A stretch of 24,962 nt of DNA from a candidate division WOR-3 bacterium (GCA_039801305.1 JBDRUL010000001.1:1-24962); one strand, 5' to 3'. Shown: positions 2,346 through 21,854, numbered from the stretch's first letter. Notes: a model not told the origin generated them from the sequence alone. Translations and numbers: made by a program.

Positions 2346-2352
2346 ATCAACG

Positions 2353-4654: not shown

Positions 4655-6087
4655 GTCTTCTGGCGCTTGCACTCCTCAGCGGACTGCTTCCTCCAAGACG
4701 GACAAGTGCCTGCACCATCGGAGCCTTTTCCCCGCTTTCGACGCAGAGTGGAGCAGCGATTCTCTGGAAGAACCGTGACGTAGCGAATCCGGATCAGGAA
4801 ATCAAGTTTTTTTCTGGCGGCAGGTTTCGTTTCATAGCCAATGTCTATGCCGGCGAGAGTACCGATGTCTGGGCTGGGATCAATGAAGCTGGTTTCGCAA
4901 TAATGAACTCGAACTCATATAACCTCGGGGGCAGAAAGGGGAAGACAGCTGACGACGGCAATGTAATGTATATGGCGCTTGGGCGGTGCGCCAGTATTAC
5001 CGATTTCTGCAAACTGATGGACTCGCTGAATGTCGTGGGCAGAAGTACACCAGCAAATTACGGCGTGTTCGACTCCACCGGCGCCACTTTAATCTTTGAG
5101 GCAGGCAACACTTTCTACAAGATTTGCGATGCCAGCCTAGACTCTTACAACTTCAGTCTGCGCGCCAACTACTCCTTTTCGGGCGATTCGATAAGACTGC
5201 GCGGCCGCAACCGCTGGCTGCGGGCAATGGAGCTAGCAATTCCTGCTCGGCAGCAGAACATCATTTCGGCCGATTGGATTCTGCAAGTACTCTGCCGGGA
5301 TCTGGGCCAGCTAGGATTCAATCCCTATCCTTTGCCTTTTACCGGCCGCTATGGCAATCTTCCCCGTGGGTATCTACCCACAGAGAGCACCATATCCCGA
5401 CAGACCACCCGATCGGTCGAGATAATGGTCGGCAGGCTGCCAGAGTGTCCAGTAGGTTCAGAGATGATGTGGGCAGTACTCGGTTCGCCCGATGTTGGCC
5501 TGCCGGTCCCGCTCTGGATAGCTGCCGGCAAGGTACCGCCTGCACTCGATGGCTACGTCCGCTCGCAGATCTGCGACGAAGCCGCTCGGGTACACTCATA
5601 CATCCACTCTGACCCGCGCTATCCGGCAGCAGTTAACACGGTTGCACTCTATACTGTCCAGACCTTTCTTGCACCGGTGGAGTCCTTGATATTTGCCATG
5701 GTCGAAAGTTCGGCTAACACATGGCATAAAAACACCCCCCTGCCCGAGCAGGCTTATGACCTGAGCCAAGCAGTTTGTGAGACAATCCTCGCTGCCTATC
5801 GACGGTTCCGGGAGAACTTGGAACCAGAGCGGGCAGTTTCACTCACTCTGGCACGACTGGTTACGCCGGCAAACTCGCGCGAGCTGCTGATTCAGCTGCC
5901 TACAGAACTAGTCAACCGTGAACTCTTTATCTACGACGCCATAGGGAGGCGCCGGTTAACTATAACTGCACCTACGGACAGGAACTCGTACAGCTGCGAC
6001 ATCTCTTCTCTTCCACGTGGCAGCTACTTCATTCTCACTGGCGGTGACAGACAGCAAAGGCTCTTCCGGCTCGACTACTTCCGCTGA
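4603..6087 (+). CDS. Secreted C45/AAT-like Ntn hydrolase (Cys nucleophile) with a T9SS-like C-terminal tail
   Basis: A hydrophobic leader is followed by SA|CTIG...ILWKNRD, then GINEAGFAIMNS and ANYGVFD, the C45 / acyl-CoA:6-APA acyltransferase pattern. The C-terminus reads IYDAIGRR...ISSLPRGSYFI. The start is uncertain (52 bp overlap with ispG). Confidence 0.8.
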   Translation: MFRSEAGARAHKAHPRLSLLALALLSGLLPPRRTSACTIGAFSPLSTQSGAAILWKNRDVANPDQEIKFFSGGRFRFIANVYAGESTDVWAGINEAGFAIMNSNSYNLGGRKGKTADDGNVMYMALGRCASITDFCKLMDSLNVVGRSTPANYGVFDSTGATLIFEAGNTFYKICDASLDSYNFSLRANYSFSGDSIRLRGRNRWLRAMELAIPARQQNIISADWILQVLCRDLGQLGFNPYPLPFTGRYGNLPRGYLPTESTISRQTTRSVEIMVGRLPECPVGSEMMWAVLGSPDVGLPVPLWIAAGKVPPALDGYVRSQICDEAARVHSYIHSDPRYPAAVNTVALYTVQTFLAPVESLIFAMVESSANTWHKNTPLPEQAYDLSQAVCETILAAYRRFRENLEPERAVSLTLARLVTPANSRELLIQLPTELVNRELFIYDAIGRRRLTITAPTDRNSYSCDISSLPRGSYFILTGGDRQQRLFRLDYFR

Positions 6088-6842
6088 ACCAGTGTTGCAC
6101 CCAGCGCCGCCGCATAGAGCGGCTGCTGACATACTGTAACCTCCACTCCTAGCGCCTTTGCCAGCGCCCTCACCATTCCCGGATTCTGTGCAACTCCGCC
6201 GGTGAATACGACGGGTGGTACCACCCTGATCCGTGCTGCCAGTGCGGCAATTCTTCGCGCGAGCGCCTCGTGCAAACCGGCAAGAATATCAGCAACCGGT
6301 GTGTCGGCGGCCGCGAGCGAAAGGATCTCTGACTCTGCCATCACGACACACAGACTCGATATCGGTGCCGGGCGAGAGGACTCAAGACTGATCTCGCCAA
6401 AACTCGCGAGCGGCAGGTTAAGGGAGCGCGACAGCACTGCCAGAAAGTTGCCGGTACCCGCAGCGCAGCGGTCGTTCATCGCAAACTCCAGTACCGCGCC
6501 ATTCTCAAGCGCAATCACCTTTGAATCCTGACCACCGATGTCTACGATCGTCCGGCAGGTAGGATGCCAAAAGAGAATACCAGCTGCCGCTGCGCTGATC
6601 TCGGTTACACTGCCCGTGGCAAAATCGACCGTATGCCGGGCATAACCGGTCGCTGTCACGGTGGCAACCTGCTCTCCAGACAGCCCAGCTTCTGCAAGAC
6701 AGCGATCAAACAACCGTGCTGCAGTCTCCCGCGGCTTCAGTCCCGTCGGCTCGGTCCGGGTGCATACGATCCTGCGAACAGCTGAATCAAACAGCAGCAC
6801 TTTGGTGTTCACCGAGCCGGCATCAACTCCCGCGTGAATCAT
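6075..6842 (-). CDS. ATP-dependent [4Fe-4S] activator, HgdC/BcrAD_BadFG (acyl-CoA dehydratase activase) family
   Basis: Motifs GVDAGSVNTK, TGYAR, DIGGQDSK, MNDRCAAGTG, ISSLCVVMAESE and GGVAQN. ATG 6842 has GGAGG 5 nt upstream and an ATGA overlap with the upstream stop. Confidence 0.93.
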   Translation of the reverse strand: MIHAGVDAGSVNTKVLLFDSAVRRIVCTRTEPTGLKPRETAARLFDRCLAEAGLSGEQVATVTATGYARHTVDFATGSVTEISAAAAGILFWHPTCRTIVDIGGQDSKVIALENGAVLEFAMNDRCAAGTGNFLAVLSRSLNLPLASFGEISLESSRPAPISSLCVVMAESEILSLAAADTPVADILAGLHEALARRIAALAARIRVVPPVVFTGGVAQNPGMVRALAKALGVEVTVCQQPLYAAALGATLVQRK

Positions 6843-7891
6843 CCGTTCCTCCAAGAATCAAAATCCGGATTTCTCCCCGCCGTCTTGGCTGATCGCACAA
6901 AAGCATCGATGTTCTCGGCTGGGGTAGCCAGCGGCACCTCGCAGCCGGTCGCCGCAACGAAACCCGCGGGACAATTTTTCCCCTGCCCGACCATCGCTGT
7001 CACCTCCCGCTCAATCTCATCAGCACTCTTAAGCAGCAGACTGGTCGTGTCGTAGTTACCAATTATTCGGCAGCGGTCGCCTGCCGCCTTGATGGCCTGA
7101 CTGATCTCAATTCTGTCCACGCTAAGAAGATCGGCTCCACTCAAAGGCATCAGCTCGATAATAAGACTTGTATCCCCACAGATGTGCAGTACCACATCGA
7201 GGTCAAACCGGTGCAGGTAGCGGATTACCTCCCTTTCGTAAGGCAAGGCAAACTCCTGATACTGCTCCGGGCTGATCACACTACCCGAAGCTAGCGGATC
7301 TACCAGTATCGGCAGCCCGCCTGCCCGAATAATTGCCTGCGCAAATCGCTTCACCGAACGAGTGGCAAAATCCAGCAGGTGATGGATACGGTCGGGCGAA
7401 ACCAACAGACCGGTCAAGAACGCCTCCTGATCCAGTAGCTGCTGCGCGGTCGTAAAAGGTGCGGGCACATAGGCGACTATCGGCACCCGGTCGGAACAGG
7501 CGTCATAGGCGTAGCTTATGCCCTCAAGATAGACCCGCAGCCGACCGTCCCGGTGCGGGTCTGCCACATAGTCACCCGGCTCAACCGGTTCCTGCCAGCG
7601 CGGTTCGGACAGATACGGCAGGTCGTCCTCCGGATAGAAGTAGCGCGAGCCAAGCGCCTCGGCAATCAGGCCCACCTCGGAAAAGAACGAGATGAAATCG
7701 ATCCCGTACCTCTCCTGCGCTGCTAGTTGTGCCCGCGCCATCGTGAAACCATTGGTGTAGTAATCGCGCAAAGAAAAGCCGGCTGCCACCGCCGCGTGAG
7801 CGGTCAGGAGCGGGAAAACCGGAACCCTATCCTGTGGCTCATCGATGACCAGCAGCCCGAACCGCTCCCGGGGAGTGAGCAGGTCTTTCAC
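6839..7891 (-). CDS. URO-D superfamily protein, MtaA/MtbA/CmuA-type methylcobamide methyltransferase (copy 1)
   Basis: Motifs DRVPVFP, AEALG, PFTTA, DPLASGSVISP, LHICGD (Zn HxC), IGNYD and ATGCEVP (third Zn Cys). It neighbours a corrinoid protein. GTGA overlap with the upstream gene. Confidence 0.88.
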   Translation of the reverse strand: MKDLLTPRERFGLLVIDEPQDRVPVFPLLTAHAAVAAGFSLRDYYTNGFTMARAQLAAQERYGIDFISFFSEVGLIAEALGSRYFYPEDDLPYLSEPRWQEPVEPGDYVADPHRDGRLRVYLEGISYAYDACSDRVPIVAYVPAPFTTAQQLLDQEAFLTGLLVSPDRIHHLLDFATRSVKRFAQAIIRAGGLPILVDPLASGSVISPEQYQEFALPYEREVIRYLHRFDLDVVLHICGDTSLIIELMPLSGADLLSVDRIEISQAIKAAGDRCRIIGNYDTTSLLLKSADEIEREVTAMVGQGKNCPAGFVAATGCEVPLATPAENIDAFVRSAKTAGRNPDFDSWRNG

Positions 7892-9327: not shown

Positions 9328-10433
9328 AGAGCCTCCAGAAAAGCCTCTATTCGAGTTCTTACCTGTTCCTGATTCTCGCCAGCATAGTCAGAATCGACTG
9401 CCAGTACCGGAATCCTGAGCTTCTGGCGCAGCCGCCTGATCTCAAAACTCCAAGGGTCACAGTAGAGCAGGGTCTTGACAACGATCCCTTGCACCCCACG
9501 TTCAGCGATAAGCTGCCGGGCAAATTGATATAGCTCATCATTGGGTCGGCGACAGGCGCAGGCTGGACGGCTGTAATAAAACCAAGCAAGCGACTCCAAC
9601 GAATCTCCCCGGCCTACCTGAGTCTCTGCCGACCAGCGTGCACCGGTGCAGAGTACGTCCCCCACAACATCTGCACCTGCCTCGAGCACATTGAGAAACC
9701 AGCGGTCAGCCGGTAGAAAGATACTACCTGCAAGCAGCAGCCTGGGGCGTACTGTCATACCGGCAGAAGCCGTCGGCAACAAGGAGAGTAGTCTTTCCAG
9801 CAGCGCCGTTGCCTGATCTGGATCCAAAGTGACGGCAAGAGCGGTCAGGTCAAGAATATCTGACTGTGACACCGCTGGCGCCGGTAGGGCACGATTCGCA
9901 TCAAACTTGCGGAGCAATTCTCGCAGCCGGTCGTAGCTGGTAATGGCATCGGCAAGACGGGTGCTCTCTGCACGCACACCAGTGAAACAAGCAAGCCAGT
10001 CTGCAAGTAACCTGAGCTGACGCAGAAACTCCCCGACTCTTGGCGAAAGCGGTTCTGAAGTCCTCGGCAGGTAAAGAGTGAACGCAGGCACACCCGCAAA
10101 GGCACTGACCGCTTCGCCCAAGCGCCGCATCATATCGCAGGTACTCACGTTGACTACGCCATCGACGAACCGGTAAAGACTTTCGGTCTCAAAACCGCCC
10201 AGACACACCTTGCAAAACGAGCAGGCATCTGACCGCAGATACTTCTCACCTCTTTCTTCTGCTTCGCGACTCGCGCGCAGTAGCCGCACCGGAATCGCAC
10301 CACTAGCGTGGATGAGCTCTGCCGGCACGTACTGACACCAGTAGCCGATGACCTTCTTGCCAGCGGCTCTGGCTTCGGAAAGCTCCTGCAACCGCTGCCG
10401 CTGCAGTCTCTCAAACTCTGCTGTCCTAATCAT
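9324..10433 (-). CDS. 2-hydroxyacyl-CoA dehydratase / double-cubane-cluster-like protein
   Basis: Motifs VIGYWCQYVPAELIHASG, DACSFCK, STCDMMRR, DVLCTG, PACACRRP, LLYCDPW and EQVRTRIEAFLE. ATG 10433 gives an ATGA overlap with the upstream stop; the track start is GTG 10439. Confidence 0.9.
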   Translation of the reverse strand: MIRTAEFERLQRQRLQELSEARAAGKKVIGYWCQYVPAELIHASGAIPVRLLRASREAEERGEKYLRSDACSFCKVCLGGFETESLYRFVDGVVNVSTCDMMRRLGEAVSAFAGVPAFTLYLPRTSEPLSPRVGEFLRQLRLLADWLACFTGVRAESTRLADAITSYDRLRELLRKFDANRALPAPAVSQSDILDLTALAVTLDPDQATALLERLLSLLPTASAGMTVRPRLLLAGSIFLPADRWFLNVLEAGADVVGDVLCTGARWSAETQVGRGDSLESLAWFYYSRPACACRRPNDELYQFARQLIAERGVQGIVVKTLLYCDPWSFEIRRLRQKLRIPVLAVDSDYAGENQEQVRTRIEAFLEAL

Positions 10434-11593
10434 CCCCACGGCGCGAACTCCATTGCCGAGATGAACTCCTGTTCAAAATCCGGTCTGCCTGAGAGCAATA
10501 TCTCCCGGCAGCGGTCAGCAAGCGTCCGCGCCACTGTCAACCGGCGGCTGTTAGCTGCCACTATCACCGCGCCGCGCAGAGCAAGATTGCGATGTTGCCG
10601 CTTCCGAGCTGTTGTATTGGGCAGCAGACCGATTATCAATGCTGCGTGCAGATCTGCCGCTCCGCCGAACCGGCCGGTGAGAAATATCCGTTCGATGTCA
10701 GCCGGTCTTGCGCCGATGCACTTCAAGAGTATTCTGATGCCGGCAGCGATCGCCGCCTTTGCCAGCTGAATCTCACGGAGATCGCGCTGACTAATGTAGA
10801 GACCGGTCTTCCCGAGCAGCAATCGCTCACCGCTGCGCAGCCGGCCGCTACTCTCTATGAGTCCGAGCCTCAGACCAGCTGCAACTGCAGCCAGAACCCC
10901 GGAACCACATATCCCGGTCGCCGGCTTACCCTGGATCGTTTCCACCAGCATCCTTCCACTTCGGACTCTCACACTGCTAACCGCGCCTGGGCAGGCGATG
11001 CTGCCGCACTCGAGCGTGGCGCCCTCGAAAGCCGGCCCCGCGGCTGTTGAACAGACCAGGATCCTCTCGCGGTTGCCCAACGCGACCTCACCGTTGGTAC
11101 CGGCATCAACTAGCAGCGAGAGCTGGCGGCTTCTGTGCATTCCGGCTGCTAATATTGCCGCGCAGCAGTCACTCCCCACAAACCTGCCCAGCAGTGGCAG
11201 CATCCGGATTCTGAGACGGGCAGTACCAATCTGCCTCACAGCAGAAAGAATCTTCCCCGTTGCCAGCTGCGACCGGTACGGATGTACTCCGAGCCCGGTG
11301 GGATCCCTGCCGAGCAGAAAATGCGCCATCACCGTGTTTCCCACTGCGGTTATTGATGACCGTCTGTCGATCTGCCAATCTGTCCTGACCCGGTCAATAA
11401 GCTCCAGTAGGCCTGCCCGGGCAACATCTGGGGCACGTTCAATCCGGCTGATCACATCAGAACCGAAGCACATCTGGGGATTCAGAATATCTTTACGCCG
11501 CACCACCCGGCTGGTGCATCTTTCTACGGCAGCAAAAGAGACTGTTGTGGTTCCGACGTCAACCGCCAGAACGCAGCTACTCAACTCGACCAT
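10430..11593 (-). CDS. ASKHA-domain (DUF4445) reductive activator of corrinoid enzymes, RACo/RamA-like, without an Fe-S ferredoxin domain
   Basis: Motifs AVDVGTTTV, NPQMCFGSDVISRI, AVGNTVM, GRFVGSD, LLVDAGTNGEV, CSTAAGPAFEG, GICGSG, ISQRDLREIQLAKAAI and LTGRFG. Confidence 0.88.
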   Translation of the reverse strand: MVELSSCVLAVDVGTTTVSFAAVERCTSRVVRRKDILNPQMCFGSDVISRIERAPDVARAGLLELIDRVRTDWQIDRRSSITAVGNTVMAHFLLGRDPTGLGVHPYRSQLATGKILSAVRQIGTARLRIRMLPLLGRFVGSDCCAAILAAGMHRSRQLSLLVDAGTNGEVALGNRERILVCSTAAGPAFEGATLECGSIACPGAVSSVRVRSGRMLVETIQGKPATGICGSGVLAAVAAGLRLGLIESSGRLRSGERLLLGKTGLYISQRDLREIQLAKAAIAAGIRILLKCIGARPADIERIFLTGRFGGAADLHAALIIGLLPNTTARKRQHRNLALRGAVIVAANSRRLTVARTLADRCREILLSGRPDFEQEFISAMEFAPWG

Positions 11594-12561
11594 TCTCTGA
11601 CTGCCGCAACCATTGCCCGGATATTTTCAAACGGCGTCTGGACAGGTACATCACAACCGGATGAAAGAATCAGCCTCGACAATCTCAACTCAAGACTTCG
11701 GCGAACCTCCGCCTGTACGTCTTCAGCAGTACCATCAAGCAGCAGGGTAGTCGAGACGCCGCCCATGATGGTCGCTTTCCCGTCAAGTTCTGGGTAAACT
11801 GATACCAGCCTGACATCCTCAATGCTGACAAAGTCGGCTCCAGTCCCAAACAGCTGCCCCAGTATCCGTGAGGTATCGCCGCAGACATGCAGACCGACCG
11901 GACTGCCCATGGAATGGGCATCTTCAACCAACCGCTTGAGATACGGTTGAGCAAAGTTGGAAAACTGTTCCGGGCTGATCACGCTCCCCGATGCCACCGG
12001 GTCTCCAATGAAGGGCACAGCGCCTGACCTGACAATCGCCGAAAGATAGCGGCGCTGATTCTCGGTGGCAACAAGAAGGAAATCCCTAGCCCTGTCCGGT
12101 TGCCCAATTAAGTCGATAAGGAACCTCTCAGTCCCCGCTAGCATTGACGCAAGCGAGAATGGACCCTTCAGCGAACCGAGTATCGTAGCCCTGCCACCGG
12201 TAAGCTCTGACAGCCTCAGGATTGCCTCCAGCACAACCGGCATCCGGCCGTCACGATCCGGGTCAGCTGGCTCGAGCCGTGAGACCTGCGGCGGCATCAA
12301 TAGGAACGGGTCTTCGTCTTCGGGAATGATGACCTGCGCGCCCATCGCCTCGGCTTCGACGACCGTGTCGGTGAAGACGGTTATTCCGTCGTAGTCGTAG
12401 AACCGGTAGGCGGAGAAAAGAGCCCGCGCCAGCGCGGTCGGCTGGGTCACCACCTCTGCCATAGAATAGCCTCCCAGTCGCGCTGCGTGATTCGCAGCCA
12501 CCATCGGAATAATCAGTTGTCGGCCAGACGCGCCGTCTGAAAAAACGCCGCCGAAACTCAT
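11581..12561 (-). CDS. URO-D superfamily protein, MtaA-type methylcobamide methyltransferase (copy 2)
   Basis: Motifs VEAEAMGA, GPFSLA, DPVASGSVISP, LHVCGD, IMGGVST and SSGCDVP. ATGA overlap with the corrinoid gene. Confidence 0.88.
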   Translation of the reverse strand: MSFGGVFSDGASGRQLIIPMVAANHAARLGGYSMAEVVTQPTALARALFSAYRFYDYDGITVFTDTVVEAEAMGAQVIIPEDEDPFLLMPPQVSRLEPADPDRDGRMPVVLEAILRLSELTGGRATILGSLKGPFSLASMLAGTERFLIDLIGQPDRARDFLLVATENQRRYLSAIVRSGAVPFIGDPVASGSVISPEQFSNFAQPYLKRLVEDAHSMGSPVGLHVCGDTSRILGQLFGTGADFVSIEDVRLVSVYPELDGKATIMGGVSTTLLLDGTAEDVQAEVRRSLELRLSRLILSSGCDVPVQTPFENIRAMVAAVREWSS

Positions 12562-13208: not shown

Positions 13209-13214
13209 CAGATA

Positions 13215-13243
13215 ATCTTATGCTTGGAAACGCGACGGTGCAA
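13215..13243 (-). promoter_or_regulatory. Putative sigma70 promoter, leaderless, for the corrinoid/methyltransferase/dehydratase sub-operon
   Basis: Minus strand TTGCAC-N17-TAAGAT, 6 nt before ATG 13208, with no SD. Confidence 0.6.
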
Positions 13244-13254
13244 CCGCCGGCGAC

Positions 13255-14292
13255 TCAGATCACCCTGACCCGGCCTGTACCAGCTTCAACCCGGCCGATT
13301 GCCACCGCTGTGTCAATCCCGGCCGAGTGCAGACGGCTGACCAGATAGTCAGCACGGTCAGCTGGTACCGACAACAGCAGACCACCTGAAGTCTGGGCAT
13401 CACATAGCAGCAGGCGCTTCGTCTCAGGAACGTCAACACCAAACTCAGCGCGCGACTGCATGAACTCGTAGTTTCTTATCGACCCACCCGGAAAAAACTC
13501 CCTGCGGGCGAGCTCCTCTGCCCCGGCAACGAACGGTATCCGCTCTGATTCAATCTCGAGATCGACCCTGCTCGCACCTGCCAGCTCCCAGGCATGACCC
13601 AGCAACCCGAAACCGGTGACGTCAGTAGCAGCATTCACCCCTACTTCGCACATCACCTCAGCAGCAGTACGATTAAGCTCGCACATGACCCGGTTTGCCG
13701 CTGTGACTGTCTGCGAATCCGCAATACCAGCCTTTACCGCGGTCGTGATCACTCCGATACCCAGTGGCTTCGTTAGAACCAGTACGTCCCCCGGGCGGGC
13801 GCCAGCATTGGTCACGATCCGATCGGGATGGACCAAGCCCGTCACCGCCAACCCGCACTTCAGTTCCGTATCCCTAGTTGTATGTCCACCGGCAACAACC
13901 GCGCCAGCTTCCATCACCTTGTCCCAGACGCCAACGAGCATATCCCTAATCGTCTCATGCGCCAGCTCGCCGACCGGAAACCCGACAATGCAGAGAGCCG
14001 CCACTGGTCTGCCGCCCATTGCATAGACATCGGAAAGGGCATTCGCTGCCGCAATCTGTCCAAAAACCCTCGCATCTTCAGCAACCGGCGTCAACACATC
14101 AACCGTCAGCACGAGAGCCGTGTCTTCGCTGATCGCATAGATCCCGGCATCATCGGCGGTGTCACTGCACACCAGCAGCCGCGGATCAGAGAAAACAGGA
14201 AGCTGCCGCAGGACCTGCAGCAGGTCTTCCTGACATACCTTGCTGGCTCAGCCGGCTGCACGCGCGTAGTCGATCAGTCTTTTTTCTCGCAT
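13255..14292 (-). CDS. selD: Selenide, water dikinase (selenophosphate synthetase), selenocysteine form, 345 aa
   Basis: The track ORF starts at 14172, but the frame extends through an in-frame TGA (14248-14250) to ATG 14292, giving MREKRLIDYARAAG-U-ASKV. This matches the SelD GC/U-x-x-K active-site motif. The rest shows DDAGIY, TVDVLTP, AANALSDVYAMGG, TDVTGFGLLGH and DAQTSGGLL. Confidence 0.96.
14218..14245 (-). promoter_or_regulatory. SECIS-like hairpin of selD
   Basis: Immediately 3' of the UGA: CAGC-A-AGGT...ACCT-GCTG, a bulged stem with a G-starting apical loop. Confidence 0.75.
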
Positions 14293-14296
14293 GGCT

Positions 14297-14890
14297 TCAT
14301 ATCCTGAGAACGTCTGTTGCCGCGGTCATGATCTCAACGAGCTCGTACATGTTGGACACCTGCCCGACCCGGGTCTCGCCTTTGAGGCCGTAGTAATCCA
14401 GACAGGTACCGCAGACACGGATTGTAAACCCCAGACGCTCCAGCCGATTCAAAGTATCAAGGACAGCCGAACCAGCAACAGCCAGCTTCACTCCGCCATG
14501 TACAAGGACGATGGTAGCCGGCTTGGCAGGTACCTCGGCCAGCGAACGAAGAAAGAGCTCCATCAGCAGCTTGCCCAGCTCTTCGCTGCCTGTTCCAAAC
14601 TGTTCAGAAGCAATCATCACGACCCGGTCTGAGACCGCCGGTTTCTGGATTGACCCACCACCGGGACTGAGTTCGATCGAATACGTGTCTGGTACGTCAT
14701 CCAGCATGAGAACCGAGTATCCGCATTTTCTGGCAAATCTTGCAATATTGTCACAGACATCGGCACTATCTGCGACCACTCTCAACGTCCGCCCAGGATT
14801 CGATTCTATGGCTGAACGGACGCGAATAACGGGTTCAGGACAGTTGAGACCCCGAACGTCCACCAGTACCGGTGCGCCGTGTCCAGTCAC
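14297..14890 (-). CDS. yedF: Sulfurtransferase-like selenium metabolism protein YedF (TusA/SirA domain + DsrE-like domain)
   Basis: N-terminal VDVRGLNCPEPV (TusA CPxP motif). C-terminal FGTGSEELGKLLMELFL...GVKL...VCGTCLDYYGL...GQVSNMYE. Directly upstream of selD. Confidence 0.88.
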   Translation of the reverse strand: MTGHGAPVLVDVRGLNCPEPVIRVRSAIESNPGRTLRVVADSADVCDNIARFARKCGYSVLMLDDVPDTYSIELSPGGGSIQKPAVSDRVVMIASEQFGTGSEELGKLLMELFLRSLAEVPAKPATIVLVHGGVKLAVAGSAVLDTLNRLERLGFTIRVCGTCLDYYGLKGETRVGQVSNMYELVEIMTAATDVLRI

Positions 14891-15177
14891 TACGTACCTC
14901 CGTTCGGACAGTAGGTGTCTACGGAGTCGGGCGCGATACCAGAATTCCTGAGCAGACTCAGGGCAGCCGGCACCTGCGTATCATCAAGTACAAGAACAAC
15001 ACCACAATCAGCCAGCCGACGGGGGGCAGCTATCACTTCGATACCCCGATCTTTCAGGACCCTTGCGGCCGAAATCAACTCCTGCACCGTTGCAAACGAG
15101 AACGAAGTAAGTTCCTGCAGACAGGGTTCGGCCAAATGCTGTTGGCCAGAACTGGCATCTTCTCTTTCGCCGTTCAT
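14890..15177 (-). CDS. DUF3343 family protein (putative Se/S carrier)
   Basis: FATVQELISAARVLKDRGIEVIAAPRRLADCGVVL matches the F-x-S/T...LK..GI...PR...CG..L pattern. Its stop abuts the yedF start. Confidence 0.75.
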   Translation of the reverse strand: MNGEREDASSGQQHLAEPCLQELTSFSFATVQELISAARVLKDRGIEVIAAPRRLADCGVVLVLDDTQVPAALSLLRNSGIAPDSVDTYCPNGGT

Positions 15178-15261
15178 TCGCTTCTCTTATTACGTCGCAA
15201 CACAATTACAGTCCATAGTGTCCGTCACCTTCAGCTTGTACGCTGCTTTCAGTACCACAGA

Positions 15262-15918
15262 CTATTTCACGAGCACACATAACCGTGGCGCAGAGCCTCC
15301 CGCAACAGACCAGAGCAAATATACGCCCGCAGGCAGGTGACGAATACTGTTCTCTCCCGGCCACAGATTGCCTACACGACGACCAGCTGCATCAAACAAC
15401 TCGTACCGTCCGTAACCACGGAGCCAACCGACAGCAACTGTCGCTGTTGAACCATTCTTACCAAGACCAGCCTGATTTAGCTCATCCACACCAGCACCTG
15501 CAAATGTGCGGGTCGTAATAGAATCCTTCAACGTCGGATCGCCCAACGACCGTACCCACAGATTTACAACTGCTTCACCAGGAGTTGTGCTGGTATAGAC
15601 GGTAACATGTATCGCCGTATCTGCCTCGCCAACTGCGAGGGTGTCGTACAGCAAGACACCCGGCTCGGCTCAGCCGAAGCGCGTACAGTAACTGACCACC
15701 CAATCCGGGACAATGCTAATGACCCGGCAATCCAGTTCGTAGACATCGCGCTCCGTGCCGGTATTGACCAGCGAGAAGTGATATTCGACCACTTCCCCGG
15801 GCTGGACATACTGAACAGTGTCACTCCGGCAGAAGAAGTCGAAGGCGTGGCCGGCATGTACCAGTGGAGTGTTGATTGCCACCAGCAGTCCTGCCATCAA
15901 CAGCAAGCGGAGTGCCAT
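15262..15918 (-). CDS. Putative secreted selenoprotein, 218 aa (signal peptide, Ig-like domain with W-x4-C-x4-U, T9SS-like C-terminal tail)
   Basis: Track ORFs 15670-15918 and 15262-15654 are in the same frame and separated only by TGA 15670-15672 plus 5 sense codons: ...PDWVVSYCTRFG-U-AEPGVLLYDTL.... SD AAGGAG precedes ATG 15918, no SD precedes 15654, and a SECIS-like hairpin follows the TGA. Confidence 0.85.
15636..15667 (-). promoter_or_regulatory. SECIS-like hairpin after UGA 15670-15672
   Basis: CGAG-ccg-GGTGTC-ttgctgtac-GACACC-CTCG: a 6-7 bp perfect upper stem with a bulged lower stem. If U-A closes the loop, the apical loop GCUGU starts with G, 17 nt from the UGA. Confidence 0.75.
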
Positions 15919-15921
15919 CTT

Positions 15922-16698
15922 TCATCTCCTTTCCAAAACAGGCGTTCGCGCCGCCTGCAACACTTTTCGCGTCGTTCCTTGTTGAATGAAGGCTACTACC
16001 GCTAACCGATCCCGGCGCCAGAAGCCGGCCAAGGGTAATCTCTCGGCAACTTCACTTGTCTCAGCTCTTGAAATAACCACTGGACGGCCTTCTGGATCGG
16101 GTAGCAGCGCCCGCATCACCGAATTGAATACTGAGTCTGTTGCACCGGTCTGGGTAGCCCGTATGCTATCTTCGGTAATCACCGTGAGCAGCCGTAATGT
16201 CTCGGCCGGAGTCGAATCAACCCCCCAGAGCCGCACAACCACTCTGATGGTATCAGTGCTGACGTCCGCCTCGACAGCAATCTGTGCCAAGGGTCTGCTG
16301 CTCCTGGCTCCCAAAATATAGTTACGGAAAGTCGGATAGTTGTATTGCGGACCCGGAGTCCGCACGACCTCGCCGCCGTCAAAGACCGTTGCGGGCTCAC
16401 CACCGGTCTCGTAGTAGAACGCCCGCCGTCTCTCTACATACTCGGGCGAAAGAGTGTCGCCGGCAACTCGACGATGATAAGCGATAACAACGACACTGTC
16501 CTTGAACTCGCGCACCAGGCTGTCCAGAGCATGCGCCGCATACGGACAGTAGACACACCGCTGCCAAGTGAAGAATTCGGCCAGCACAATCCGGTTCGTC
16601 GGCACCAGCGGCACCAGCGGCGCATCTGAACAGCCTGCTGCAACCAGCAGACCAACAGCTACCACCTGCCTCCTAGCAGTACGGCACATCGGCGACAA
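15922..16698 (-). CDS. Omp28-like thioredoxin-fold lipoprotein (CxxC)
   Basis: Lipobox LVAAG|C, then RIVLAEFFTWQRCVYCPYA, VIAYH, GEPATVFDG, FNSVMRALL and VVAFIQQ...VLQAA. The exact start is uncertain. Confidence 0.85.
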   Translation of the reverse strand: MSPMCRTARRQVVAVGLLVAAGCSDAPLVPLVPTNRIVLAEFFTWQRCVYCPYAAHALDSLVREFKDSVVVIAYHRRVAGDTLSPEYVERRRAFYYETGGEPATVFDGGEVVRTPGPQYNYPTFRNYILGARSSRPLAQIAVEADVSTDTIRVVVRLWGVDSTPAETLRLLTVITEDSIRATQTGATDSVFNSVMRALLPDPEGRPVVISRAETSEVAERLPLAGFWRRDRLAVVAFIQQGTTRKVLQAARTPVLERR

Positions 16699-16714
16699 TA
16701 CCCCTTCTCCTGTG

Positions 16715-18502
16715 TTACCGCACCACTACGACTGGTACGACCCTTGCTTCTGTTTCAGCTGCCAGACGCAGAAAATAGGTACCAGCGACAACCGGACCGC
16801 CGGTAGCGTCCCGAAGATCCCATACCAGCCTGCCGGCACCGGCGACTCTGTCTGCAAGCTTGCGCACTATACGACCCGTGACATCGCATACCACCGCTGT
16901 ACCGCAGACGCCGCTAACCAGCGAATAGTCGATTACTGCCTGCTCCCGGACCGGATTACCTGCTCCTGCCAACCGGCAGCGCAGAGTTACTCCCGCCTCA
17001 TCGACTCCTGACACATACGGGTTTACAACGATGTCGTCGACAAACCAGCCCTGATCGGTGACGCTGGCGTCGGATATAAACCGAAATCGCACGCGCAGCG
17101 TCGAGCCCACATATGGAACAAGGCTGAATGTCTGGGGAAGCCAGCTGGTAGCTGCCCCGGTGAATGTTCCCAGTGTGCGCCAGAAGCGACCACCCATATT
17201 GACCTCAACCAGACAGTAGTCCCAGCCCTGCTCAACCGAGTACCACTGATAGTACTGCAGCTGACCGCCGTCACCAACCAGCACGTAAGGACTCACCAGC
17301 CACATATCTGACTCGTTCGGGTACTGACCGCTGGCAGTGGTTCCCCATGACCGGGTTGGCGAGTGCGCCCTGGTGGTTGTCTGTGCCCAGCGGCAGTTGA
17401 TTCCGGATGTCGTCCAGCCATTGAGTCCATGTTCAACGTCGTCGGAGAGTCCGGAACCAACCGTAATCAGCATCGGGAAGGTCGCGCTGCCCAGATCTCC
17501 CTCGACACCGCTGAACTGTAATGTCAGCTCAGCCAGGTGGCCTGAAGGGCAGGCGGTATCTATACTCACCTCAAACGCGCTGGACGGCTCGCGCATCTCG
17601 GCAACACCTATATCCGGGTAACTCGCGTTGGCGGTCACAACCGTGACATACGGATCGTTCGTTGAAAGTGTTGCAGTCGCACCAACTGCAGTCGCTGAGC
17701 CAACGTTGCAGAGTATCGGGCGCAGTTGAACAACCGTGCCCGGTCGAGCCGGTGAGTTGGTATAGCCATAGTACTCCAGTATCGGCCGCTGAACTACGTC
17801 GCAGACCGCGCCCTGATGAATCGCCCGGGTCGAATTGTTCTGAACAAAAACCACGAACCGGCAGTTTCTGGCCACCCAGGACTGTTGCAACGTAAAGTTG
17901 CGGGTACGGACTATTGTGTCATTTGCCGGTACCGTAATTGCCTCGCCTGAAGCATTCGGCAGCATTGTTCTCTCGACGTCGTGCAGACTGTCCATCCCCT
18001 GCCAGTAGTAGGGAATGTGGCTCTCGGTAAGCACGACCTGCAGCTGACCGCTGATCGGCGAACCGGTACTGTTGCGGATAACAATTGTCAGCACTCCACT
18101 GCGGGTTACTGAGTCGTAGGTGGAACTCAGGTCAATACCCAGCTGCACCGGATTGTTGACATGAGTGCGGAAGTAGTCCCAGTAGATCGGAAACATCGTG
18201 CCCGTGTGCATCCCGCCGACAACGCTCGAATCGCCTTCAAGAATCACGGTTGGGTACCCACTGACACCGTAGAAGCTCCGGCGTGCGTTGGCAGTGGCAG
18301 TGTAGAACGGGTCGCTGCTCGACGAGTGGTAGGCAATTGCCGCTACCGAGTCGATGCCCCGGAACTGCAACTCCTCTATCCCGCGTGCCGCGCCCGGGCA
18401 GTACTGGCACCATGTGGCCGTAAAGTCTTCAACCACTACAACACGATGGCCAGCCAGCACCGGCAACGATGCAATCAGCAGTATCGCTAAGAGACTCCTC
18501 AA
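16715..18502 (-). CDS. Secreted Omp28-like CxxC protein with Ig-like and jelly-roll (immune-inhibitor-A/MAM-like) domains and a FlgD/T9SS-like tail
   Basis: Signal peptide, then VVVEDFTATWCQYCPGAA, AIAYH, GYPTVILEG and CRFVVFVQ; later SPYVLV...DYCLVEV...VRFRFISDASVTDQGWFVDDI; tail CDVTGRIVRKL...WDLRDATGGPVVAGTYF. TTG start with SD AAGGAG. Confidence 0.9.
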   Translation of the reverse strand: MRSLLAILLIASLPVLAGHRVVVVEDFTATWCQYCPGAARGIEELQFRGIDSVAAIAYHSSSSDPFYTATANARRSFYGVSGYPTVILEGDSSVVGGMHTGTMFPIYWDYFRTHVNNPVQLGIDLSSTYDSVTRSGVLTIVIRNSTGSPISGQLQVVLTESHIPYYWQGMDSLHDVERTMLPNASGEAITVPANDTIVRTRNFTLQQSWVARNCRFVVFVQNNSTRAIHQGAVCDVVQRPILEYYGYTNSPARPGTVVQLRPILCNVGSATAVGATATLSTNDPYVTVVTANASYPDIGVAEMREPSSAFEVSIDTACPSGHLAELTLQFSGVEGDLGSATFPMLITVGSGLSDDVEHGLNGWTTSGINCRWAQTTTRAHSPTRSWGTTASGQYPNESDMWLVSPYVLVGDGGQLQYYQWYSVEQGWDYCLVEVNMGGRFWRTLGTFTGAATSWLPQTFSLVPYVGSTLRVRFRFISDASVTDQGWFVDDIVVNPYVSGVDEAGVTLRCRLAGAGNPVREQAVIDYSLVSGVCGTAVVCDVTGRIVRKLADRVAGAGRLVWDLRDATGGPVVAGTYFLRLAAETEARVVPVVVVR

Positions 18503-18562
18503 CTTACGCTCCTTTCTTGTAGGTATGTCCCTACCAGAACGTGACGGAAATGCTGTCTTTCT

Positions 18563-18748
18563 TCATACCAGTCCCATGCAGGAGAGACATATCTGTGTAC
18601 TGAGATGCTCGACCCTTGACCAGTCATCCGCGAGAGTACCGATCAGTATTGTGGCAATGGCTAGAGCCAGCAGCCCCACCCCCAAAAGCCGGCGAAATGG
18701 ACGTGTTCCTGATATCAGGGACGAACCGCCCCTCTGTAATTTAGTCAA
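18563..18748 (-). CDS. Small membrane-anchored CxxC protein, CD1871A-like
   Basis: One hydrophobic helix followed by QICLSCMGLV at the extreme C-terminus (ICxxCxG family motif). TTG 18748 has GGAGGT 7 nt upstream; the track start is 18757. Confidence 0.75.
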   Translation of the reverse strand: MTKLQRGGSSLISGTRPFRRLLGVGLLALAIATILIGTLADDWSRVEHLSTQICLSCMGLV

Positions 18749-18802
18749 CTGTTCCACCTCCGCCCCTGTACCAGTAGAAACGCGACGCCGTTCATGTTTT
18801 TC

Positions 18803-18985
18803 TCAAATCCTCCTGTCTGACTCCGGGCACAGTACGGCAACGGATTTCTCTCCACATGTGGGCTTAATGTTGAGCCGCCGGCTGCGAGGGCACATCACAT
18901 GGCAATTCGGCGCAGCACAACCGGTCAGCGCAACCGGCGGCTCAAACCCGACCCGGCCAGACAGGGAGAATAATGTCCCACCCAT
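18803..18985 (-). CDS. Possible small Cys-rich protein (60 aa)
   Basis: ATG lies 4 nt after the activase stop. The product has 5 Cys, including CxxxxCxxxCP and a second CP. It has no SD and no recognised family. Confidence 0.3.
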   Translation of the reverse strand: MGGTLFSLSGRVGFEPPVALTGCAAPNCHVMCPRSRRLNIKPTCGEKSVAVLCPESDRRI

Positions 18986-18989
18986 TAGT

Positions 18990-19757
18990 TCACATCCGGC
19001 TTCGCCACACCGCCCCATTGCCAGTCAGCGCCGCACCGAGCGCACCGACAAGTTGAGGCTCGCGGGGTATCAGCAGCGATACGCCCAGCCTGCGCTCCAC
19101 CAGCGCCCTGACACACGGGTTGAGTGCGACTCCGCCGCACATCACCACCGGTGGCTCAAGCCCCACCCGGCCAACCAGCGCCAGTAGCCGGCTCACAATT
19201 GCCTCGTGCAGCCCCAGTGCAATTGCACGCCTGCTGGTACCACGCGCGATCAGGGAAACCACCTCTGACTCGGCAAACACTGTGCACATCGAGCTGATCG
19301 CTGCCGACTCTTCTGCAAGAAGAGCCTCAGTACCGAACTCGTCCAGCGCATATCCGAGTGTGGTTGCCATCACTTCGAGGAATCGACCCGTTCCGGCTGC
19401 GCAGCGGTCGTTCATTTCGAACTCGCGCTGGCGGCCATTCTCCACGCGGATTGCCTTGGAATCCTGCCCCCCGATGTCGATCACTGTGCGGCAATCTGGA
19501 AACAGCGACTGTGCGCCAAGTGCGTGCGCCCTGATTTCGGTCACAGTGGAACAGCCAAGCCGTTCTGCTGCCAGATGCCGGCCATAGCCGGTTGCGACCA
19601 CCACATCAGGCAGATATTGATCGATCAGCTCTCGTACGCGTGCCCAGGGATCGGTACCGGTGTCGGTGATAACCCGGACACCGATCTGACCATCCTTGAG
19701 CAGAACCAGCTTGGTAGTCCGCGAACCGATATCAAGACCCGCGACAGTCGCTGCCAT
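18990..19757 (-). CDS. ATP-dependent [4Fe-4S] activator (DCCP-R / HgdC family)
   Basis: Motifs AGLDIGSRTTK, TGYGR, DIGGQDSK, MNDRCAAGTGRFL, ISSMCTVFAESEV and GGVALN. Directly downstream of the DCCP gene. Confidence 0.95.
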   Translation of the reverse strand: MAATVAGLDIGSRTTKLVLLKDGQIGVRVITDTGTDPWARVRELIDQYLPDVVVATGYGRHLAAERLGCSTVTEIRAHALGAQSLFPDCRTVIDIGGQDSKAIRVENGRQREFEMNDRCAAGTGRFLEVMATTLGYALDEFGTEALLAEESAAISSMCTVFAESEVVSLIARGTSRRAIALGLHEAIVSRLLALVGRVGLEPPVVMCGGVALNPCVRALVERRLGVSLLIPREPQLVGALGAALTGNGAVWRSRM

Positions 19758-19760
19758 CGC

Positions 19761-21032
19761 CTATTCGAGCTGCTCGATGAAAGCCTCGATGCGCGTGCGC
19801 AGCTGACCGGTATCCTCCTCGGAATAGTCAGTCACGATCTTCAGCGAAGGAATGCCAGCCTGTTTGAGCGCTGCCTCAACCCGCATGGCCTCGATGTTGT
19901 AGCCATGGCAGGTCTGAAGCACATACTGAATCGCGCCCTTCACGCCGAACTCTTGCGCCCGCTGCACCGCTGCGTCGATCCGTTCCTGATTTGGCGTAAA
20001 GCAGGCACAGTTGATCTTCAGATAGCGGTCAGCGATCGCAGTAATCTGCCCCTGCAGGTCCCGGGCGGTCTCGTCTATCAGATTCTCAAAGTAGCGCGAG
20101 CCGGTGCAGCTTTCATCCCAGACGATGACTCCGCCCGACTGCTCCACTAACGAATGGACTTTCCAGTTGCCCATCACTGTCGGGCAGCCGGCAATCATAA
20201 CCCGCTTCGCCCCGGGCTTCAGTGCCGAAACACCCTTGCCGATCCGCTCGGCAAGCTCAGCATTCAGGGCATTGACTGCTTGCGTGAATCTGACCGGCTC
20301 GTCAGCCAGCGCCACCTGCATCACCACCAGAGCGTCCAGCCCGGAGATCGGCGGCGGATCGACCTTACGGAGCTCAGCCAGCTTCTGCAGTGCCCGACGC
20401 TTCTCGTTCATTATCCGGATTGCTTCAGCGAGCCGGTTTGGCTCAACTTTCGTACCAGAAAGCTCCTCCAGTTTCAGCCGGAACTGATCCACTTCTGACC
20501 GCCACAACTCCGCATCCAGCCTGCCCTTCTTCTGCGGCAGCTCCATCACGTGGAAGTTCACCCTGCCCGAGAGAATCTCCCAAGTCTTCTTCTTTGCATC
20601 GCAGGTCGTCTCACCCACTGCCAGGCTCTTGACCGGCCCATACGGACAGGTCTTAGAAAACGCCAGACCCAGTGTGGACTTCACAAGGGGGCAGATGTCA
20701 CGTGGAAACATCTTCTCCGCATAGGGGATTGAAGCCTGTATTCCGCCACAAAGCGCGACCGGAACAGTGTTCGCTGCCATGGCAAGTTCTTCAGGAACGT
20801 AGATGCAGAAGGTACCGACAGTCTTCTTCCCGGCTTTCTTGCTCTCCACCAGCTCCGCCACCCGTCCACCGTGCGCCTCATGCAGCGCCTTGTCAAAGTA
20901 AGCCATCGCCTGCGGACGATTGGTCTGCGCACCAACAGTCATACGGAACAGCCGGTCGGTTGCCGCCTGCATCTCGTCATGCAGCGCCACATCCAAGCCC
21001 AGCTCCCTGAGCAGCTCTCTGTGTTCTGACAT
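19761..21032 (-). CDS. Double-cubane-cluster-containing anaerobic reductase (DCCP family, HGD-D fold)
   Basis: The N-terminus ELGLDVALHD...NRPQAMAYFD...HGGRVAEL is followed by VGTFCIYVPEEL, PRDICPLVKS, GETTCDAKKK, DESCTGSRYFEN, INCACFTPN, LQTCHGYNIE and DTGQLRTRIEAFIE. It is paired with an activator gene as in DCCP/DCCP-R. Confidence 0.9.
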   Translation of the reverse strand: MSEHRELLRELGLDVALHDEMQAATDRLFRMTVGAQTNRPQAMAYFDKALHEAHGGRVAELVESKKAGKKTVGTFCIYVPEELAMAANTVPVALCGGIQASIPYAEKMFPRDICPLVKSTLGLAFSKTCPYGPVKSLAVGETTCDAKKKTWEILSGRVNFHVMELPQKKGRLDAELWRSEVDQFRLKLEELSGTKVEPNRLAEAIRIMNEKRRALQKLAELRKVDPPPISGLDALVVMQVALADEPVRFTQAVNALNAELAERIGKGVSALKPGAKRVMIAGCPTVMGNWKVHSLVEQSGGVIVWDESCTGSRYFENLIDETARDLQGQITAIADRYLKINCACFTPNQERIDAAVQRAQEFGVKGAIQYVLQTCHGYNIEAMRVEAALKQAGIPSLKIVTDYSEEDTGQLRTRIEAFIEQLE

Positions 21033-21062
21033 CTTGCCCCCTCTCGGAGCAGCCCTTTGAAA

Positions 21063-21854
21063 CTACTTTTCTCCCAGATACCAGCCGCGACCAACCTTGT
21101 GAGCATGCGCGGCATCACGCCAGAGATTCACCAGCCCTTCGGCGAACATATACAGATCGTTTCCGAAGTTCTGCAGTATCGTCGGCTTCAAATCGACCTC
21201 GACCATTCTCTTGTACTGGTCAAAGCACTTGGCGAACTCGTCGGTCTGGTCTTTCACTTCAATCACCTTCAGCCCGTGCTTCTTCATCAGATCTGCCCAG
21301 CCCTGCAGTGTCTCCATGTACGGGAACGCCATCGTCTCATAGAGTTTGGCAAGCAGCGACTCCTCGACATCACCAGTGATCACCCAGTCGGTGAAGATGA
21401 TCTTGCCGCCAGGCTTGAGCACCCGTGCCGCCTCGGACATGAGCTGGTCTTTGTTGGTAACATAGCACCATGCTTCCTGCCCCCAGACCACATCAAAGGT
21501 ATCCTTCTTGAAGGGCATATCCATCGCGTTCCCTTCGACGAAGGTGATCAGATGATCAAGTCCGGCAGCCTTGGTTCTCTCGTTCGCCTTGGCAAGCATA
21601 GTCTTGGTGAAGTCAAGACCGGTCACCCGCACGCCATACTTCTTGGCGATGTGCCTTGCCGGTGCGCCCAGAGCTGAACAGACATCGAGCACATGCATCC
21701 CGGGCTTCAGGCCGACCGCGTTTGCCATCCGGTCGGTAATCTCGGCTCCGCCCGAATGAATCTGTTCGGACATCACCGCTTCCCACAAGAGTCCACCCGG
21801 ACCATCGTAGACGTCCTGTACGTCCTTGCCGGTATAGTCGTAGCGCTTTGGCAT
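21063..21854 (-). CDS. Class I SAM-dependent methyltransferase (sarcosine/dimethylglycine- or tocopherol-MT-like)
   Basis: Motifs EQIHSGG, LKPGMHVLDVCSALGAPAR, VTGLD, EGNAMDMPF, FDVVWGQEAWCYV and ARVLKPGG. SD AAGGGAGG. Confidence 0.9.
   Translation of the reverse strand: MPKRYDYTGKDVQDVYDGPGGLLWEAVMSEQIHSGGAEITDRMANAVGLKPGMHVLDVCSALGAPARHIAKKYGVRVTGLDFTKTMLAKANERTKAAGLDHLITFVEGNAMDMPFKKDTFDVVWGQEAWCYVTNKDQLMSEAARVLKPGGKIIFTDWVITGDVEESLLAKLYETMAFPYMETLQGWADLMKKHGLKVIEVKDQTDEFAKCFDQYKRMVEVDLKPTILQNFGNDLYMFAEGLVNLWRDAAHAHKVGRGWYLGEK

Follow-up and report, generated by a model that had tools for sequence, protein, structure and literature searches.

The 24,962-nt stretch of DNA analysed here (GCA_039801305.1, JBDRUL010000001.1:1-24962; hereafter the window) comes from a candidate division WOR-3 bacterium and carries a cluster of 16 genes, all on the minus strand (21854-6075), in which genes for ATP-driven reductases, methyl-transfer proteins and selenium metabolism lie next to each other. 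Do these genes belong to one system and, if so, on what does it act? The reductases comprise a double-cubane cluster protein (DCCP), a pair of HGD-D proteins (alpha and beta) and two ATP-dependent activases. The methyl-transfer proteins comprise a class I S-adenosylmethionine-dependent methyltransferase (SAM-MT), a corrinoid protein, two MtaA-like zinc methyltransferases (A and B) and a corrinoid reductive activase (RACE). The remaining genes encode SelD, YedF, a DUF3343 protein and three secreted proteins. The window is the entire contig C1 of a metagenome-assembled genome (MAG) of 1.5 Mb, which is 63% complete. Families were assigned by Pfam and NCBIfam profile searches, RNAs by Rfam and tRNAs by ARAGORN.

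On balance, we favour the view that the cluster is one selenium-handling neighbourhood, which ends in selenide for its own SelD and joins two units that are separate elsewhere. The first unit would be a widespread module made of DCCP, a cysteine-bearing SAM-MT, a BzdNO-like alpha/beta pair and an HgdC-type activase. The second would be made of the corrinoid protein, the two His-Cys-Cys methyltransferases and RACE, and is of a kind implicated in methyl-selenide demethylation. What has been observed directly is which genes are present, how their linkage is conserved and rearranged, and where the cysteines lie.

Conservation of the cluster within WOR-3

The alpha subunit served as the query against 201 WOR-3 genomes and was found in 40 of them, all from one class. 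Loci were fetched from 39 of these carriers, and all window proteins were mapped onto them. Seven genes, encoding the corrinoid protein, an MtaA-like protein, RACE, beta, alpha, a second MtaA-like protein and an activase, form a core that is present in all 39 loci, with the RACE match being sub-threshold in eight loci and that of the first MtaA-like protein in three of those eight as well. The SAM-MT gene, present in 27 of the 39 loci, is the most conserved gene (57-86% identity), and in families other than that of the source genome (family f1) it lies immediately upstream of the corrinoid protein gene. DCCP and its activase are found in five loci, immediately upstream of the SAM-MT gene in four of them (three families) and beside selenium genes in the fifth. 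SelD is encoded near the core, or adjoins it, in 12 loci. Genes for Omp28-like secreted proteins also recur around the WOR-3 core in rearranged orders, and one alternative order reads Omp28-like, SelD, DCCP, activase, SAM-MT and corrinoid protein. As the same partners are found in rearranged orders, selection rather than inertia is favoured as the cause of their linkage.

At the level of whole genomes, SelD scores above cut-off in 39 of the 40 alpha carriers versus 26 of the 161 other WOR-3 genomes. These are raw counts, given without a p-value because the WOR-3 relatives are not independent. An earlier interpretation, made from the window alone (the sequence-only reading), had divided the cluster into three sub-blocks and had named their never occurring together elsewhere as grounds for abandoning it. 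The sub-blocks do co-occur in other genomes, in varied orders and across WOR-3 families.

Association of the reductases with selenium genes in other phyla

An exhaustive protein-level search of 1.84 billion representative proteins recovered 313 relatives of alpha, 40 of them at E <= 1e-30, the named members belonging to Verrucomicrobiota, Lentisphaerota and Candidatus Sabulitectum. In a cross-phylum scan with one genome per species, 439 species genomes encode an alpha relative, and neighbourhoods were tallied for the best 80 loci, which come from Verrucomicrobiota, Planctomycetota, Lentisphaerota, Armatimonadota, Sumerlaeota and others. The loci are on MAG contigs, whose taxon labels are partly doubtful and whose related genomes are non-independent samples. 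Outside WOR-3, alpha is the marker of a five-gene module, which comprises DCCP, SAM-MT, beta, alpha and an activase. Of the other module genes, beta was found in 76 of the best 80 loci, the activase in 64, SAM-MT in 62 and DCCP in 58, and the selenium genes are also frequent (SelD in 37, SelA in 31, SelB in 28). Genes for a corrinoid protein, an MtaA-like protein or RACE were found within 10 kb in none of these 80 loci. When only the loci with at least 8 kb on either side are considered (n = 30), the complete five-gene set is present in 24 and a sel gene in 20.

Four loci of Verrucomicrobiota type or from Lentisphaerota (L055, L056, L058 and L059) exhibit the five-gene set beside SelA, SelB and SelD, without corrinoid genes. 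Their DCCPs are true members (410-413 bits) and their SAM-MT is an orthologue of that of the window (34-44% identity). An additional feature of these four loci is a SelD fused to a CMD/AhpD-type domain (526-533 aa; L055:15622-17208, L056:1923-3521, L058:15921-17501, L059:12257-13858). A metagenome contig of unplaced taxon (L057) carries the activase, SAM-MT, beta and alpha with no DCCP or sel gene, along with TusA- and DsrE-like genes; approximately 6 kb away lies an MtaA-like gene. In the genomes with the five-gene module, the MtaA-like genes sit elsewhere on the chromosome.

The sub-blocks are thus functionally linked and tied to selenium, the reductase and SAM-MT part lying beside selA, selB and selD in other phyla. 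Among the loci examined, the coupling of the reductases to the corrinoid set is specific to WOR-3, and the constant partners of the reductases are the SAM-MT and the sel genes.

These observations also bear on the possibility that three operons (SAM-MT/DCCP/activase, the Omp28-like and selenium genes, and the corrinoid/HGD-D genes) are juxtaposed by chance and kept together by inheritance only. Such a history would fit the 487-nt gap after the third gene, the core without nearby SelD or DCCP in some relatives, and the synteny of the flanking housekeeping genes within family f1, where aroA, ispG (gcpE) and a C45/AAT-like gene are the same in seven loci (L009-L013, L050, L053). It does not fit partners that recur in varied orders across WOR-3 families, nor partners that recur at 27-44% protein identity in Verrucomicrobiota, Planctomycetota and Lentisphaerota. 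Since the recurrence extends across phyla, mere juxtaposition is unlikely, and we give this explanation little credence.

Predicted catalytic features of the reductases

HgdC-type activases inject electrons in an ATP-driven reaction, DCCPs carry out the two-electron reduction of small molecules, and in BzdNO an [8Fe-9S] relay feeds an open-site [4Fe-4S] cluster. The window DCCP matches that of C. hydrogenoformans (PDB 6ENO/7YYL) end to end with 417 bits and keeps all the cluster cysteines. It is the only window gene product that passes NF040772 membership, with beta (180 bits) and alpha (83.5 bits) of the core both falling under the cut-off of 350. The two activases share 46% identity.

With regard to the HGD-D pair of the core, beta exhibits cysteines at positions 35, 73, 101, 264, 294 and 327, three of which are invariant and the other three present in 36-37 of 43 homologues. 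The corresponding [8Fe-9S] ligands of BzdN are Cys 36, 73, 100, 263, 293 and 327 (PMC11971306). Alpha keeps only C163, C192 and C429, which are invariant (45 of 45) and are equivalent to ligands two, three and six. In BzdO, the open-site catalytic [4Fe-4S] cluster is bound by Cys 95, 128 and 380 (PMC11971306). Based on these patterns, alpha is the predicted catalytic [4Fe-4S] subunit and beta the predicted BzdN/DCCP-like [8Fe-9S] carrier. Proteins in which the two are fused, with alpha first, exist in Candidatus Sabulitectum and in a metagenome (P0130, P0141; 861-867 aa), which supports a physical alpha/beta complex.

The pair appears to be BzdNO-like in architecture: two HGD-D paralogues would form a heterodimer of a six-cysteine and a three-cysteine subunit, with electrons entering by ATP hydrolysis via an HgdC/BzdPQ-type ATPase (PDB 8S02; PMC11971306). 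Nevertheless, by sequence it is no member of the BzdNO family. The scores are far under the family cut-offs (83.5 bits versus 453.8 for the bzdN model in the TIGR03190/TIGR03191 test, so that membership fails), no aromatic-CoA pathway genes are present in the window, and alpha carries a conserved N-terminal extension of approximately 100 aa. As the alpha profile scores 92 bits on DCCP versus 33 bits on BzdO, the likeness to BzdNO looks parallel, having arisen from a DCCP-like ancestor. The sequence-only reading had described the pair as a DCCP-like protein with an HGD-D partner, that is, as a second DCCP; in view of the cysteine patterns and scores, a BzdNO-type heterodimer fits better.

Compared with the DCCP/DCCP-R system of C. 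hydrogenoformans, the window likewise exhibits a full NF040772 member with an adjoining activase, and the link between DCCP and SelD that has been published at the level of whole genomes appears here as direct adjacency. The difference is that the DCCP is here one of three HGD-D paralogues, accompanied by a SAM-MT and the alpha/beta pair.

Two other assignments were rejected. A 2-hydroxyacyl-CoA dehydratase of amino-acid fermentation is not indicated, since the HadC score is 87 bits where 700 are required, HadB is absent or below 31 bits and there is no CoA-transferase; family searches bore out the earlier statement that the window holds no gene for a CoA-transferase, an acyl-CoA dehydrogenase or a Mo-hydroxylase. 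A selenoprotein form of alpha, suggested by a single TGA in nine relatives, was also discarded, as the TGA at residue 477 is a read-through stop codon.

Methyl-transfer proteins

MtaA-like zinc enzymes transfer methyl groups to thiols or selenols, and RACE regenerates Co(I). Both MtaA-like proteins of the window have MtaA of M. mazei (PDB 4AY7) as their best PDB match (115 bits for A, 93 bits for B) and score 154 and 164 bits on TIGR01463. They share only 35% identity and are therefore old paralogues; across WOR-3, B is conserved at 45-72% identity. Both exhibit the His-Cys-Cys pattern, as LHICGD and TGCEV in one protein and LHVCGD and SGCDV in the other, compared with LHICGN and PGCGI in MtaA, and the aligned H-x-C and C-terminal cysteine of both are taken to be zinc ligands. 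An O-demethylase acting together with ring reduction was considered and rejected, as both proteins are of the His-Cys-Cys type and match MtaA, CdmB gives 30 bits or no match, and aromatic-CoA genes are absent.

With 169-177 bits, the corrinoid protein does not reach the cut-offs of the MtgC, MtbC and pyl_corrinoid models. RACE comprises the middle and ASKHA domains only, without a [2Fe-2S] domain. Most WOR-3 relatives possess an N-terminal ferredoxin domain with a C-x4-C-x2-C motif; this domain is also missing in at least five other WOR-3 loci (L021, L029, L036, L045, L046), and in two more (L053, L054) it is replaced by a short C-x2-C-x2-C stretch.

The SAM-MT reaches the cut-off of no named NCBIfam family and comes closest to the sarcosine/dimethylglycine methyltransferases and the DVU_1556 family. 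All 93 orthologues compared, which span several phyla, have C130, and 89 of them also have C59, in motif I. These conserved cysteines and a distant similarity to ArsM-type models could point to the detoxification or volatilisation of selenium, or of As, Te or Hg, by Challenger-type methylation, with the reductases preparing the substrate. Two methyl-transfer systems would suit such a function, and the secreted thiol/selenol proteins could bind metalloids. However, the SAM-MT reaches 68 bits on ArsM models with cut-offs of 263-510, the window contains no ars, mer or efflux genes, and the tight linkage is to selA, selB and selD and not to efflux or resistance genes, so that we consider detoxification very improbable.

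The methyl-transfer genes might instead handle methyl-sulfur compounds, in the manner of the minority of "non-selenium" mlp clusters (methionine salvage), or make methionine from a methyl-corrinoid. Such a role agrees with the MtaA-like enzymes of the His-Cys-Cys type being thiol methyltransferases by family (PMC10418091) and with the YedF and DUF3343 families acting on sulfur too (PMC5322559). It also agrees with the methionine genes. Five WOR-3 genomes, from families f1 (including G041 and G024) and f6 (G149, G187), were searched without a match to MetE, and the three f1 genomes among them, two of which are 98-100% complete, also gave no match to a MetH-type homocysteine methyltransferase domain. 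Among the five genomes, MetH-like and homocysteine S-methyltransferase genes are present in family f6 only. Family f1, including the source genome, may thus lack a known methionine synthase. Nevertheless, a methyl-sulfur function is quite improbable in view of the neighbours, namely a Sec-containing SelD, Sec/Cys secreted proteins and, in other phyla, selA and selB. SelD is moreover retained in nearly all WOR-3 carriers of alpha (39 of 40), and no MarHDK-like or methionine-salvage genes are present in the window.

Selenium genes and secreted redox proteins

The window SelD exhibits a G-U-A-S-K motif in which U is selenocysteine (Sec), and a strong hairpin follows the UGA (z = -3.4). A second SelD with an in-frame TGA, 46% identical, is encoded directly after SelB on another contig of the same genome (C17:6655-9591); this makes the window SelD an additional paralogue that is linked to the cluster. 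The same two copies are carried by several genomes of family f1, the cluster copy being without TGA in some of them. The search for selenium genes elsewhere in the genome, which the sequence-only reading had proposed, returned SelA (486 bits), SelB and this second SelD. A tRNA-Sec was not found by ARAGORN, a result that is not meaningful in a MAG that is 63% complete. Five WOR-3 genomes were searched for YqeC and SelU and returned neither, so that no selenium trait other than selenocysteine was detected there.

The two SelD copies could also indicate that the module acts downstream of SelD, by converting selenophosphate into a selenium metabolite, with the help of the SAM-MT, or into a selenium-bridged double-cubane cluster. 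A separate cluster SelD is indeed kept beside the SelB-linked copy in f1 genomes, a SAM-MT suits biosynthesis better than salvage, and a 2(4Fe-4S)-Se cluster has been listed as a formal possibility (Haft & Gwadz, bioRxiv 10.1101/2022.07.06.499078). However, the SelD of the Verrucomicrobiota and Planctomycetota loci lies beside SelA and SelB, that is, in the ordinary selenocysteine route. The cluster contains no glycosyltransferase, SenA/SenB-like or cofactor-assembly gene, and the structures of DCCP and BzdN have been modelled with a bridging sulfur (PMC11971306 for BzdN). We regard this alternative as unlikely.

With regard to the secreted proteins, the 218-aa protein forms one frame when TGA is read as U, and exhibits a signal peptide and a sorting-type tail. 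It matches no known family. At the position of its TGA, one relative (L024) also has a TGA and eight other WOR-3 homologues have a cysteine; the hairpin after the TGA is weak (z = -1.5). This protein is a candidate for a new extracytoplasmic selenoprotein. In the larger Omp28-like protein, which carries a thioredoxin-like W-C-x-Y-C-P motif, Cys32 aligns with a TGA in two loci of another WOR-3 family (L027, L030), which shows that Sec and Cys replace each other in a surface redox protein whose gene lies beside selD. The C-x-Y-C-P motif of the second Omp28-like protein is kept in its relatives, and its scores on NF033782 and NF045500 are below cut-off. On NF045500, the family of the Omp28-related selenoprotein, the two window proteins reach 71 and 56 bits versus a cut-off of 200 and are not members by score; they are therefore Cys-form relatives of this selenoprotein.

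The grouping of the Sec-containing SelD with YedF and DUF3343 resembles the selD-yedF-DUF3343 neighbourhood described by Lin et al. in 2015 (PMC5322559). It differs by the absence of YedE and of a Sec lyase, and by the HGD-D and activase genes, which are not discussed there, although in a STRING table of the same study the partners of YedE, YedF and DUF3343 already include an activase and an HGD-D subunit (PMC5322559).

Gene organisation

The gene content, the gene order and the single strand given by the sequence-only reading are borne out by the Pfam and NCBIfam searches (Table 1). The genes are also mostly coupled, as it had stated, since 10 of the 15 junctions overlap or have a gap of at most 4 nt. 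In gene order, the junction gaps are 30, 3, 487, 16, 3, 84, -1, 4, 46, -4, -13, -10, -4, -4 and -16 nt. Thus, DCCP and activase 1 are 3 nt apart, DUF3343 and YedF overlap by 1 nt, and activase 2 and MtaA-like B overlap by 16 nt. The final seven genes, from the corrinoid protein to activase 2, are genuinely coupled.

Table 1. Features of the window and of its flanking genes, listed in the direction of the cluster
Feature	Position	Strand	Basis
Promoter-like site upstream of SAM-MT	22088-22117	-	TTGACA-18-TAGAAT, 11/12 consensus matches only
Class I SAM-MT	21063-21854	-	Pfam Methyltransf_11/25/31
DCCP	19761-21032	-	NF040772 457 bits, cut-off 350
HgdC/DCCP-R-type ATP-dependent activase 1	18990-19757	-	PF01869 180 bits; TIGR00241 231 bits
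Secreted Omp28-like + MAM-domain protein	16715-18502	-	PF11551, PF20773; W-C-x-Y-C-P
Second Omp28-like lipoprotein	15922-16698	-	PF11551; C-x-Y-C-P
Secreted 218-aa candidate selenoprotein	15262-15918	-	Single in-frame TGA 15672-15670, C-x4-U
DUF3343, putative Se/S carrier	14890-15177	-	PF11823 25.9 bits, cut-off 25
YedF (TusA-like + DsrE-like domains)	14297-14890	-	TIGR03527 172 bits, cut-off 110
SelD, Sec at codon 15 (TGA 14250-14248)	13255-14292	-	TIGR00476 361 bits
Corrinoid (B12-binding) methyl-carrier protein	12558-13208	-	PF02607, PF02310
MtaA-like zinc methyltransferase A, 326 aa	11581-12561	-	PF01208 222 bits
RACE/RACo-type corrinoid reductive activase	10430-11593	-	PF17651, PF14574
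HGD-D beta subunit, 371 aa	9324-10439	-	PF06050 239 bits
HGD-D alpha subunit, 479 aa	7888-9327	-	PF06050 136 bits
MtaA-like zinc methyltransferase B, 350 aa	6839-7891	-	PF01208 219 bits
HgdC-type ATP-dependent activase 2	6075-6854	-	PF01869 185 bits; TIGR00241 232 bits
aroA, ispG (gcpE), C45/AAT-like genes	2338-6087	+	Converging on the cluster end

The 487-nt gap (18503-18989) separates the SAM-MT, DCCP and activase 1 genes from the remaining genes, and exhibits no recognisable gene, Rfam match or promoter-like match. In WOR-3 relatives, a small FeThRed_B-like gene is found after or near the SAM-MT gene. Such a gene was looked for in the gap and is absent; its homologue sits on contig C22. Two internal promoters had been proposed. 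The one at 22117-22088 was recovered by a consensus scan, whereas that at 13215-13243 was not, and promoter-like sites occur in the window at chance level (8 found versus 5.5 +/- 2.5 expected). Rfam gave zero matches at E <= 0.1 across the window, leaders included, which leaves a riboswitch unsupported.

Relation to known systems

The cluster is, in large part, of a kind that has been described, though not proven. The type 1 mlp clusters of Kountz & Balskus (2023) comprise two or three MtaA-like proteins of the His-Cys-Cys type, a corrinoid protein and RACE, and have no H4folate methyltransferase. DCCP, its reductase and selABCD are found among their accessory genes, and Sec is decoded by 87% of the species that carry them (PMC10418091). 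These authors proposed a function in methyl-selenide demethylation based on the genetics of sdm in M. voltae and on an assay in which ClMlp2 acted on selenide (PMC10418091). The sdm genes are required for dimethylselenide use in M. voltae, and an sdm-like operon of M. maripaludis is upregulated 5.6-7.8 log2-fold in selenium starvation (PMC11097638). Of 970 strong DCCPs, 955 were found in SelD-containing genomes (Haft & Gwadz, bioRxiv 10.1101/2022.07.06.499078). The description of the cluster as a single undescribed pathway therefore has to be given up on two counts, as DCCP, DCCP-R and sel genes in MtaA-like corrinoid clusters were already known (PMC10418091), as was the DCCP-SelD link. One of the candidate functions listed with it, the recovery of selenium from methylated selenium for SelD, coincides with the hypothesis published for such clusters (PMC10418091).

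The window has several features of a type 1 mlp cluster. It encodes two MtaA-like proteins, which are of the His-Cys-Cys type and nearer to coenzyme M methyltransferases than to phenolic O-demethylases, together with a corrinoid protein and RACE, and no Pterin_bind protein is present in the window. DCCP, its reductase and selD are accessory neighbours in both cases, the host genome may likewise decode selenocysteine, and the proposed role, selenide from methyl-selenides, would be the same. The differences are that only two MtaA-like genes are present here, that an HGD-D pair between RACE and the second methyltransferase, with its own activase, lies inside the core, that a class I SAM-MT is constantly found nearby, and that RACE is without a ferredoxin domain in the source genome. 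WOR-3 is not named in the text and supplementary trees of Kountz & Balskus (PMC10418091). In the literature consulted, we found no description of a BzdNO-like alpha/beta pair (six-Cys relay and three-Cys catalytic subunits) or of a Cys-bearing SAM-MT as constant partners of DCCP and sel genes.

Proposed function of the cluster

For the selenium-handling neighbourhood that we favour, we infer the substrates, the direction of flow and the roles of the SAM-MT and of the secreted CxxC/UxxC proteins as follows. Driven by ATP, the activases would supply low-potential electrons both to DCCP and to the double-cubane cluster of beta, and beta would pass them to the open-site [4Fe-4S] cluster of alpha. 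Oxidised, elemental or organic selenium would then be reduced to selenol or selenide, or C-Se bonds would be cleaved. Methyl groups would be added to or removed from selenium by the SAM-MT and the corrinoid set, and the product would be carried to SelD by YedF and DUF3343. The secreted CxxC/UxxC proteins may capture extracellular selenium.

Several observations weigh against this proposal. The role of the SAM-MT is unexplained, as the expected end product of the pathway is selenide without a methyl group. Since the five-gene module occurs in other phyla without corrinoid genes, each unit may have a substrate of its own. Ten of the 30 loci with full flanks are without a sel gene within 10 kb, and related genomes are not independent samples. 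As the housekeeping genes flanking the cluster are syntenic in family f1 too, its conservation there is partly plain inheritance. The missing tRNA-Sec belongs on the same side, with the reservation given above.

Within the selenium-handling view, a more specific reading can be put forward, which we hold only tentatively and think doubtful as it stands. DCCP and the alpha/beta pair would be the missing selenide-making enzymes that supply SelD in anaerobes, acting on targets that are intractable to ordinary reductants. With a similarly tentative standing, these targets might be elemental or polymeric selenium or methylated or oxidised organoselenium; alternatively, the open iron site might cleave C-Se bonds. 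It is equally speculative that a methyl group handled by the SAM-MT, and in WOR-3 also by the corrinoid set, keeps selenium soluble and controlled between steps.

The natural substrate of DCCPs is still given as unknown in the papers of 2018-2025 that we consulted. If this specific reading is true, a selenium compound would be the natural substrate of double-cubane enzymes. Two questions meet in the cluster, namely the role of DCCP in cells and the source of the selenide used by SelD in anaerobes. The suspected players are all found in one window, in which a set that is constant across phyla (DCCP, alpha/beta, activase, SAM-MT and sel genes) can be told from the lineage-specific additions, namely the corrinoid set for methyl transfer together with the secreted Sec/Cys proteins. 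Judging from the cysteine patterns only, alpha and beta would also represent a second natural pairing of the BzdNO type, between an [8Fe-9S] relay and an open-site [4Fe-4S] cluster, and one that lies outside aromatic metabolism.

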